From NCBI RefSeq assembly GCF_024502345.1, contig NZ_JALDNN010000001.1: DNA of 64,000 bases; one strand, written 5' to 3'. Source of the DNA: Escherichia coli. Lineage in GTDB: Bacteria; Pseudomonadota; Gammaproteobacteria; Enterobacterales; Enterobacteriaceae. Under the pieces are notes generated by a model that was not told the origin of the DNA, ran no database searches, and saw only the letters and a program-made list of their open reading frames with translations. Below are positions 29,220-30,518 of this stretch, piece by piece; position 1 is the stretch's first letter, and every line of letters starts with the position of its first letter. A program made the position numbers and the translations under genes.

Positions 29220-30518
29220 ACTCTGGGAAATGGTTGGAATACACCGCTGGGTGCCATCTCTTTTTACGCTGCCCGATCGAGTAGTAAGTTAAATAATGAT
29301 ACCAGACACGAAGGTACGAGCTATCAGGTCGCCTATAATAAATATCTAGTACAAACAGCCACTCGATTTAGCGTGGCCGCCTGGCGTTATGCTTCGCAGG
29401 ATTACAGGACATTCAGCGACCATCTTTACGAAAATGATAAACACTATCATCAGAGTGATTATGATGATTTTTATGATATTGGCAGAAAAAATAGCCTTTC
29501 TGCCAATATTATGCAACCTTTATCCAATAATCTGGGAAATGTATCATTAAGTGCGCTTTGGCGGAATTACTGGGGGCGAAATGGAAATGCTAAAGATTAC
29601 CAATTCAGTTACTCCAATAACTGGCAACACATTAGTTATACTTTCTCTGCCAGCCAATCTTATGATGAAAATAATAAAGAAGAGGAGCGTTTTAATCTGT
29701 TTATCTCCATTCCTTTCTACTGGGGGGATGATATTGCCAAAACACGTCACCAAATTAACTTATCGAATTCGACCTCATTTTCCAAAGATGGCTATTCCTC
29801 CAACAATACTGGAATTACTGGCATAGCCGGTGAACATGATCAGTTAAATTATGGTATATATGTTAATCAGCAACAACAAAATAATGATACCTCGCTTGGT
29901 ACGAATTTAAGCTGGAGAACTCCCATCGCCATAATAGATGGCAGCTATAGTCATTCTAAAAACGCCTGGCAAAGTGGTGGAAGTATTAGTAGTGGATTAG
30001 TTGTCTGGCCCGGTGGTATTAATATCACTAACCAGTTATCCGATACATTTGCAATTCTGGATGCGCCTGGGTTAGAAGGTGCATATATTAATGGACAAAA
30101 ATACAATCGAACAAACAGCAAAGGCCAGGTTGTTTACGACCTGATAATACCTCATCGTGAAAACCATCTGGTACTTGATATAGCAAACAGTGAAAGTGAA
30201 ACAGAATTGCAGGGCAATCGTCAAATTATTGCACCTTACCGTGGAGCAGTTTCTTATGTGCAGTTTACAACTGACCAACGTAAGCCCTGGTATATACAGG
30301 CACTGCGTCCCGATGGTTCGCCATTAACCTTTGGCTATGACGTACTGGATCTCCAGGAAAATAATATTGGAGTCGTTGGCCAGGGTAGTCGCCTTTTTAT
30401 TCGCGTAGATGAAATTCCCACTGGAATAAAAGTTGCTCTCAATGATGAACAGAACTTATTCTGTACTATTACTTTTCAACACGTTATCGATGAAAACAAA
30501 ACATATATATGCCAGTAA
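29220..30518 (+). pseudogene. 5'-truncated fimbrial usher (C-terminal ~430 codons only)
   Basis: Frame is open from 29220 (after a TAA at 29217) and usher-like (GNGWNTPLGAISFYAARSS...); no N-terminal half, no chaperone or major subunit upstream; track ORF begins at GTG 29373. Confidence 0.6.

Follow-up and report, generated by a model that had tools for sequence, protein, structure and literature searches.

A 3′ relic of a Yeh-like fimbrial usher gene bounded by a common 2,442-bp deletion between rpsT and nhaR in Escherichia coli

We report that the fimbrial usher frame lying between espX1 and nhaR in an Escherichia coli contig (NZ_JALDNN010000001.1, assembly GCF_024502345.1) is very probably the non-functional 3′ relic of a Yeh-like usher gene of gamma4 type, left behind by one old deletion of 2,442 bp. 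The stretch of DNA analysed, called the window here, is 64,000 nucleotides long, and in this region reads ileS–ribF–rpsT ... nhaR–nhaA–hokC/mokC–IS–dnaJ. Between rpsT and nhaR sits an AT-rich insert composed of espX1, the usher-like frame, and an ORF of 319 codons; G+C content is 31.5% in espX1 and 39.7% in the usher remnant, compared to 50.9% for the whole window. The features of the locus are as follows.

27511–28932, + strand: espX1, pentapeptide-repeat T3SS effector gene, 473 aa (PGAP name in matching genomes; weak pentapeptide-repeat matches)
28933–29186, + strand: remaining part of the former spacer that separated espX1 from the major-subunit gene, 28% G+C, without its final 44 bp
29187–29189, no strand: deletion junction, GGT microhomology (3 bp), where the spacer is joined to usher codon 374
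29187–30518, + strand: usher pseudogene remnant, Yeh-like, ortholog of ECs_0022/Z0022, codons 374–816 plus stop
30531–31490, + strand: fourth operon gene, intact, 319 aa (ORF with a signal-peptide-like N-terminus and AAGGAG 6 nt before the ATG)

The deletion emerges from comparison with intact orthologous loci of other E. coli, a check that an earlier note on this DNA had proposed. In strain 131, O157:H7 Sakai, and others, the gene order is espX1, fimbrial subunit (177 aa, PF00419), chaperone (227 aa, PapD_N/PapD_C), usher (816 aa), fourth gene, and nhaR. Aligned to these alleles, the window resolves into two collinear blocks that abut at 29187–29189 and differs from them by one deletion of exactly 2,442 bp (positions 3491–5932 of the intact allele L001), which upholds the suggestion that a chaperone–usher operon had lost its 5′ part. 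The deletion took away the whole of the subunit and chaperone genes, the final 44 bp ahead of the subunit start codon, and codons 1–373 of the usher. A GGT triplet is present at both breakpoints, and the junction carries no scar of an IS, repeat, or mobile element. The left breakpoint lies 254 bp 3′ of the espX1 stop codon, within the former spacer between espX1 and the subunit gene; the retained part of that spacer is collinear with L001 3234–3490 at ∼95% identity. Neither blastn nor tblastn retrieved the missing subunit gene, chaperone gene, or usher N-terminal half from anywhere in the 64-kb window, in keeping with the earlier description of a half-length, C-terminal usher frame that neither a chaperone gene nor a major-subunit gene precedes. 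We infer that the deletion had a single origin, by illegitimate microhomology-mediated recombination, and that the resulting allele has spread by descent and by homologous recombination.

Alignment of the translation to the intact alleles places the beginning of usher homology at 29187, which corresponds to codon 374, and its end at 30518, giving a remnant of 443 codons as compared to 816 aa for the intact ortholog. The earlier note had also called for an alignment to ushers, and the outcome was usher homology short of full length. The truncation that it described stands, but its figures (about 430 of ∼850 codons) do not, and its reading of the 5′ boundary needs revision: the codon at 29217–29219, taken for an in-frame TAA, is ATA (Ile), with a TAA at 29218–29220 out of frame, and the frame is open not only from 29220 but from 29184, its nearest in-frame 5′ stop being the TAA at 29181–29183. 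Over residues 374–816 of ECs_0022 from O157 Sakai, 429 of 443 amino acids of the remnant are identical (96.8%). The window frame matches the Pfam Usher family (PF00577) at profile positions 213–549 of 549 (E = 2e-78) and PapC_C (PF13953) at residues 359–420 of the translated 29220–30515 frame (E = 1.7e-9); the same Pfam search gave no match to PapC_N on the usher frame. The best NCBIfam model is NF011763, covered from position 376 to 826 of 826. The remnant frame has neither a start codon nor a ribosome-binding site at the deletion junction; its first in-frame start is a GTG at 29373, which would give a product of 381 aa and is not preceded by a Shine–Dalgarno sequence.

What the deletion took from the protein can be read from the intact 816-aa usher, in which Pfam delimits PapC_N at residues 24–159, Usher at 176–733, and PapC_C at 743–804, and in which matches to PDB entries place the FimD N-terminal domain (1ZDV, 1ZE3) at residues 43–151, the FimD translocation domain (3OHN) at 137–651, and the Caf1A plug (3FCG) at 248–328. 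The N-terminal domain and the plug both lie entirely 5′ of residue 374, that is, within deleted residues 1–373. The remnant accordingly still has the C-terminal domains and, of the translocation domain, the distal ∼54%; its signal peptide, N-terminal domain, and plug are gone, as is the proximal ∼46% of the barrel region. A complete usher translocation domain is a 24-strand barrel with a plug. Among the hallmarks of a functional usher of the FimD/PapC type (PF00577), the PapC_C domain is thus still found in the window, while the signal peptide and PapC_N domain, the complete barrel with its plug, and the adjacent cognate chaperone and pilin subunit genes are not; these neighboring genes are present in the intact alleles.

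These comparisons indicate how the relic arose and why it is inert. A single deletion between the two GGT triplets removed the genes for the subunit and the chaperone along with the 5′ part of the usher gene, leaving a frame that has neither start codon nor ribosome-binding site at the junction, no signal peptide, N-terminal domain, or plug, and about half of the barrel. As is established for the FimD and PapC ushers, a fragment of this kind cannot be exported, fold into a pore, or assemble a pilus, and it has no N-terminal domain with which to recruit chaperone–subunit complexes. The operon as a whole is non-functional because it has no cognate chaperone or subunit gene, and the remnant is probably decaying slowly and neutrally.

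To place the window allele in its population, megablast was run against 5,426 complete E. coli genomes, and carriers of the deletion were counted with a 201-bp query centred on the junction that had to be spanned from end to end. Both arrangements, deleted and longer, occur among the complete genomes: the junction is found in 2,426 of the 5,426 (about 45%), including REL606, BL21 derivatives, O121 RM8352, and ETEC strains, whereas the deleted 2,442-bp segment is found in 1,203 (about 22%), including O157:H7 and O145. About two-thirds of complete genomes have the locus. The 18 deletion alleles that were sampled (the window and 17 others) share a single junction sequence, which could serve as a stable marker that sorts genomes into carriers, intact loci, and other states. 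K-12 has a different lesion, an IS1 together with a 138-nt tail of the fourth gene. The rpsT–nhaR interval (27028–31528 of the window) is a replacement hotspot, with strain SBF22 carrying an unrelated MFS-transporter/GH31 glycosidase island between the two genes. The IS1-associated deletion of K-12 and this alternative island share the hotspot with the window allele, but their breakpoints differ from those of the window deletion and they are independent events. Further IS1 insertions within the fimbrial genes were seen in strains 5264 and EF7-18-51.

The remnant bears two marks of a pseudogene. It has lost its translation start and an essential 5′ coding region, and it is accumulating lesions, the 17 other carriers showing a frameshift and two nonsense mutations of independent origin. 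These fall in four alleles: a frameshift in L008, a nonsense codon at position 634 in L024 and L027, and one at position 647 in L025. The frame is still open in the window and in the 13 remaining carriers. The usher frame is open in all six sampled intact alleles, and additional inactivating lesions in it are confined to deletion carriers. Elsewhere in the operon, the fourth gene is disrupted in 7 of the 17 other deletion carriers, and some alleles that have the intact segment contain a stop in the chaperone gene or in the fourth gene. In all annotated carriers examined, PGAP treats the remnant as a pseudogene (“incomplete; missing N-terminus”). It is an ordinary and already known one.

Substitution patterns at this locus have to be read with recombination in mind. 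Five deletion alleles (L009–L011, L022, and L028) differ by 1.5–3% from the window type and share long tracts with intact alleles. L009 is a mosaic, window-like to about 29982 and then showing the states typical of intact alleles, and L010 and L011 resemble intact alleles onward from about 80 bp past the junction. Homologous recombination has shuffled the pseudogene with functional alleles, and most of the polymorphism in the remnant was probably imported from functional copies. Of the variants confined to deletion carriers, 20 are nonsynonymous and 21 synonymous, versus 15 to 31 for variants found elsewhere, a lean toward nonsynonymous change that is non-significant (Fisher p = 0.13) and is likewise confounded by recombination. 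Because of this mosaic recombination, we set aside pairwise pN/pS as an uninformative test of pseudogene status, and we regard the nonsense and frameshift lesions as a clearer sign of neutral decay than dN/dS.

Pairwise pN/pS enters into one reading at odds with decay, namely that the remnant is a new functional gene, started internally (e.g. at GTG 29373, for 381 aa) and maintained by selection. The deletion allele is found very commonly, its frame is open over 443 codons here and in most carriers, and pN/pS among deletion alleles is low (0.17, as compared to 0.15 among intact ushers, the comparison being confounded by recombination with intact alleles), a value with no look of relaxation that on its own would point to constraint. 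We nevertheless consider such a gene very improbable: the low ratio is attributable to the mosaic tracts, 4 of the 17 other carriers have nonsense or frameshift lesions, and the product would have no signal peptide and no Shine–Dalgarno sequence ahead of its GTG. The structural biology of FimD and PapC moreover establishes that a beta-barrel reduced to one half does not fold in the outer membrane. The divergence among deletion alleles could also be taken as a sign that this deletion occurred more than once, at a hotspot, since these alleles differ from each other (by up to 3%) as much as they do from intact alleles. The mosaic tracts again show recombination acting at the locus, the junction is the same in 18 of 18 sampled alleles, and 3 bp of microhomology are not enough to bring about the very same deletion time after time; repeated origin consequently seems to us very improbable.

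The earlier note had raised the possibility that the loss came about through the event that placed the espX-like gene here. espX1 is indeed the immediate 5′ neighbor of the remnant, and both are AT-rich relative to the window. Yet espX1 occupies the identical position, with the same flanks, ahead of the complete operon in intact alleles (L001, L012–L016, and Sakai) as in deleted ones, which refutes this cause; the left breakpoint is also well beyond the espX1 stop codon, in sequence collinear with the intact spacer, and the junction shows plain 3-bp microhomology. We therefore treat a role for espX1 insertion in the truncation as extremely improbable. The chance that the truncation is a sequencing or assembly artefact of the window is virtually nil, as the identical junction recurs in 2,426 independent complete genomes, REL606 and O121 RM8352 among them. 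What remains by far the best account is the single old deletion followed by decay.

The identity of the locus follows from its usher and its position. In the survey of Wurpel et al. 2013 (PMC3559732, Table S2), the usher Z0022/ECs0022 is of the “Yeh-like” gamma4 type, and REL606, BL21, HS, H10407, and all B1 strains of the set have an entry for the locus, many of them flagged as misannotated. The window has an usher orthologous to Z0022/ECs0022, at the rpsT–nhaR position next to espX1, with gene order as in Sakai. The Yeh-like gamma4 cluster corresponds to O-island 1 (z0020–z0025) of EDL933 and to ECs_0019–ECs_0025 of Sakai, which have the same chromosomal position as the window locus. In contrast to the O157 cluster, the window allele is missing usher codons 1–373 together with the genes for subunit and chaperone; the fourth gene, ∼98% identical in DNA between Sakai/EDL933 and the window, is frameshifted in the former but intact in the latter. 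The yehDCBA operon of K-12, a paralog at another chromosomal site, has the same order of subunit, chaperone, usher, and adhesin as the intact locus; its usher YehB is 58% identical over the full length to the intact ortholog of the remnant, while the fourth-gene products of the two loci have no detectable sequence similarity. FimD and PapC (3RFZ, 6E14, 7LHG) belong to the same family and have the same domain order, and FimD can be aligned with the intact ortholog across residues 42–805 (E = 2.5e-113), whereas the remnant corresponds to the distal barrel and C-terminal domains only. No comparable usher fragment is known to function alone.

The fourth gene, which PGAP calls “hypothetical” or “fimbrial family protein”, probably encodes the tip adhesin, as its position in the operon and its signal-peptide-like N-terminus suggest. 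Its product matched no Pfam family and no PDB sequence. The family is very narrow, with 12 matches among 5.8 billion proteins, the most distant being 45–47% identical. An AF2 model resting on only these 12 homologs, nearly all of them E. coli variants, is poor (pLDDT 49.8), and its top Foldseek matches, to FimH, LpfD, and CfaE, reach TM scores of only 0.18–0.24. In O157:H7 Sakai (ECs_0019) and in strain 131, the gene is a pseudogene, a poly-A run that follows about codon 98 being longer by a single A; this frameshift presumably explains the two ORFs z0020/z0021 of EDL933.

A recent paper (PMC12778044, 2026) names the Yeh-like pilus “Yhl”, reports a crystal structure (8V9V) of the receptor-binding domain of Sakai YhlD that includes Trp142, and finds yhlD nearly confined to phylogroup E. 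We tried to equate the fourth gene with this YhlD, without success. The fourth-gene ORF has no Trp after residue 3, hence no Trp142; it had no sequence match in our PDB copy, which includes 9N4G from the same paper; its Sakai copy is frameshifted at about codon 98; and the locus has a much wider distribution than the paper indicates. ECs_1277, the putative adhesin of a Sakai type-3-like operon, was tried as another YhlD candidate and likewise gave no PDB match. Either PMC12778044 applies the name YhlD to another gene, or the PDB copy that we searched does not contain 8V9V. Since the fourth gene could not be equated with YhlD, we have not adopted the yhl gene names.

The product of z0021 (fmrA) of O157 has been reported as a motility repressor, FmrA (reviews PMC10877973 and PMC9387321). 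One might then suppose that the deletion allele is common since the retained promoter drives only the intact fourth gene, with the usher remnant as a transcribed leader, and that the allele is selected for motility regulation and not for pili; on that supposition, which we hold to be quite improbable, the deletion would have turned a silent fimbrial operon into a small cassette. More generally, the fimbrial promoter region presumably still lies within the retained spacer (28933–29186), and this candidate promoter may drive transcription through the remnant into the fourth gene. Promoter-like matches in the spacer region did not exceed the shuffled expectation. A terminator-like hairpin with a T-run spans the junction (29170–29199, + strand), its stem (29170–29189) derived from the spacer and its T-run from the usher side; we do not count it as a terminator, the scan having given 2 sites as compared to 1.8 expected by chance. 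We also dismissed as a gene a 43-codon ORF in the spacer (28961–29092) with a Shine–Dalgarno-like sequence, which has stops or indels in most alleles, including that of O157.

In textbook fashion, a horizontally acquired fimbrial operon of high A+T content is decaying here along several independent routes at a single hotspot: by a microhomology deletion in the window allele, by an IS1-associated deletion in K-12, and by frameshifts and nonsense mutations in O157 and other strains. The importance of the locus beyond correct annotation is small, but a positive result for this fimbrial cluster or for espX1 in a virulence-gene screen should prompt a check that the operon is intact. espX1 itself is intact in the window and disrupted in 9 of the 17 other carriers (frameshifted in eight and interrupted by IS1 in REL606), and it is the most divergent gene of the island, at 93–97% identity between alleles. 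Farther along the window, between nhaA and dnaJ, a hok/gef-family toxin ORF of hokC/mokC type (34156–34398, + strand) adjoins a DDE transposase gene (34470–35588, + strand, 372 aa). Sakai has mokC at the same site, without an annotated transposase, and the toxin–transposase pair of the window resembles the IS186 arrangement of K-12.
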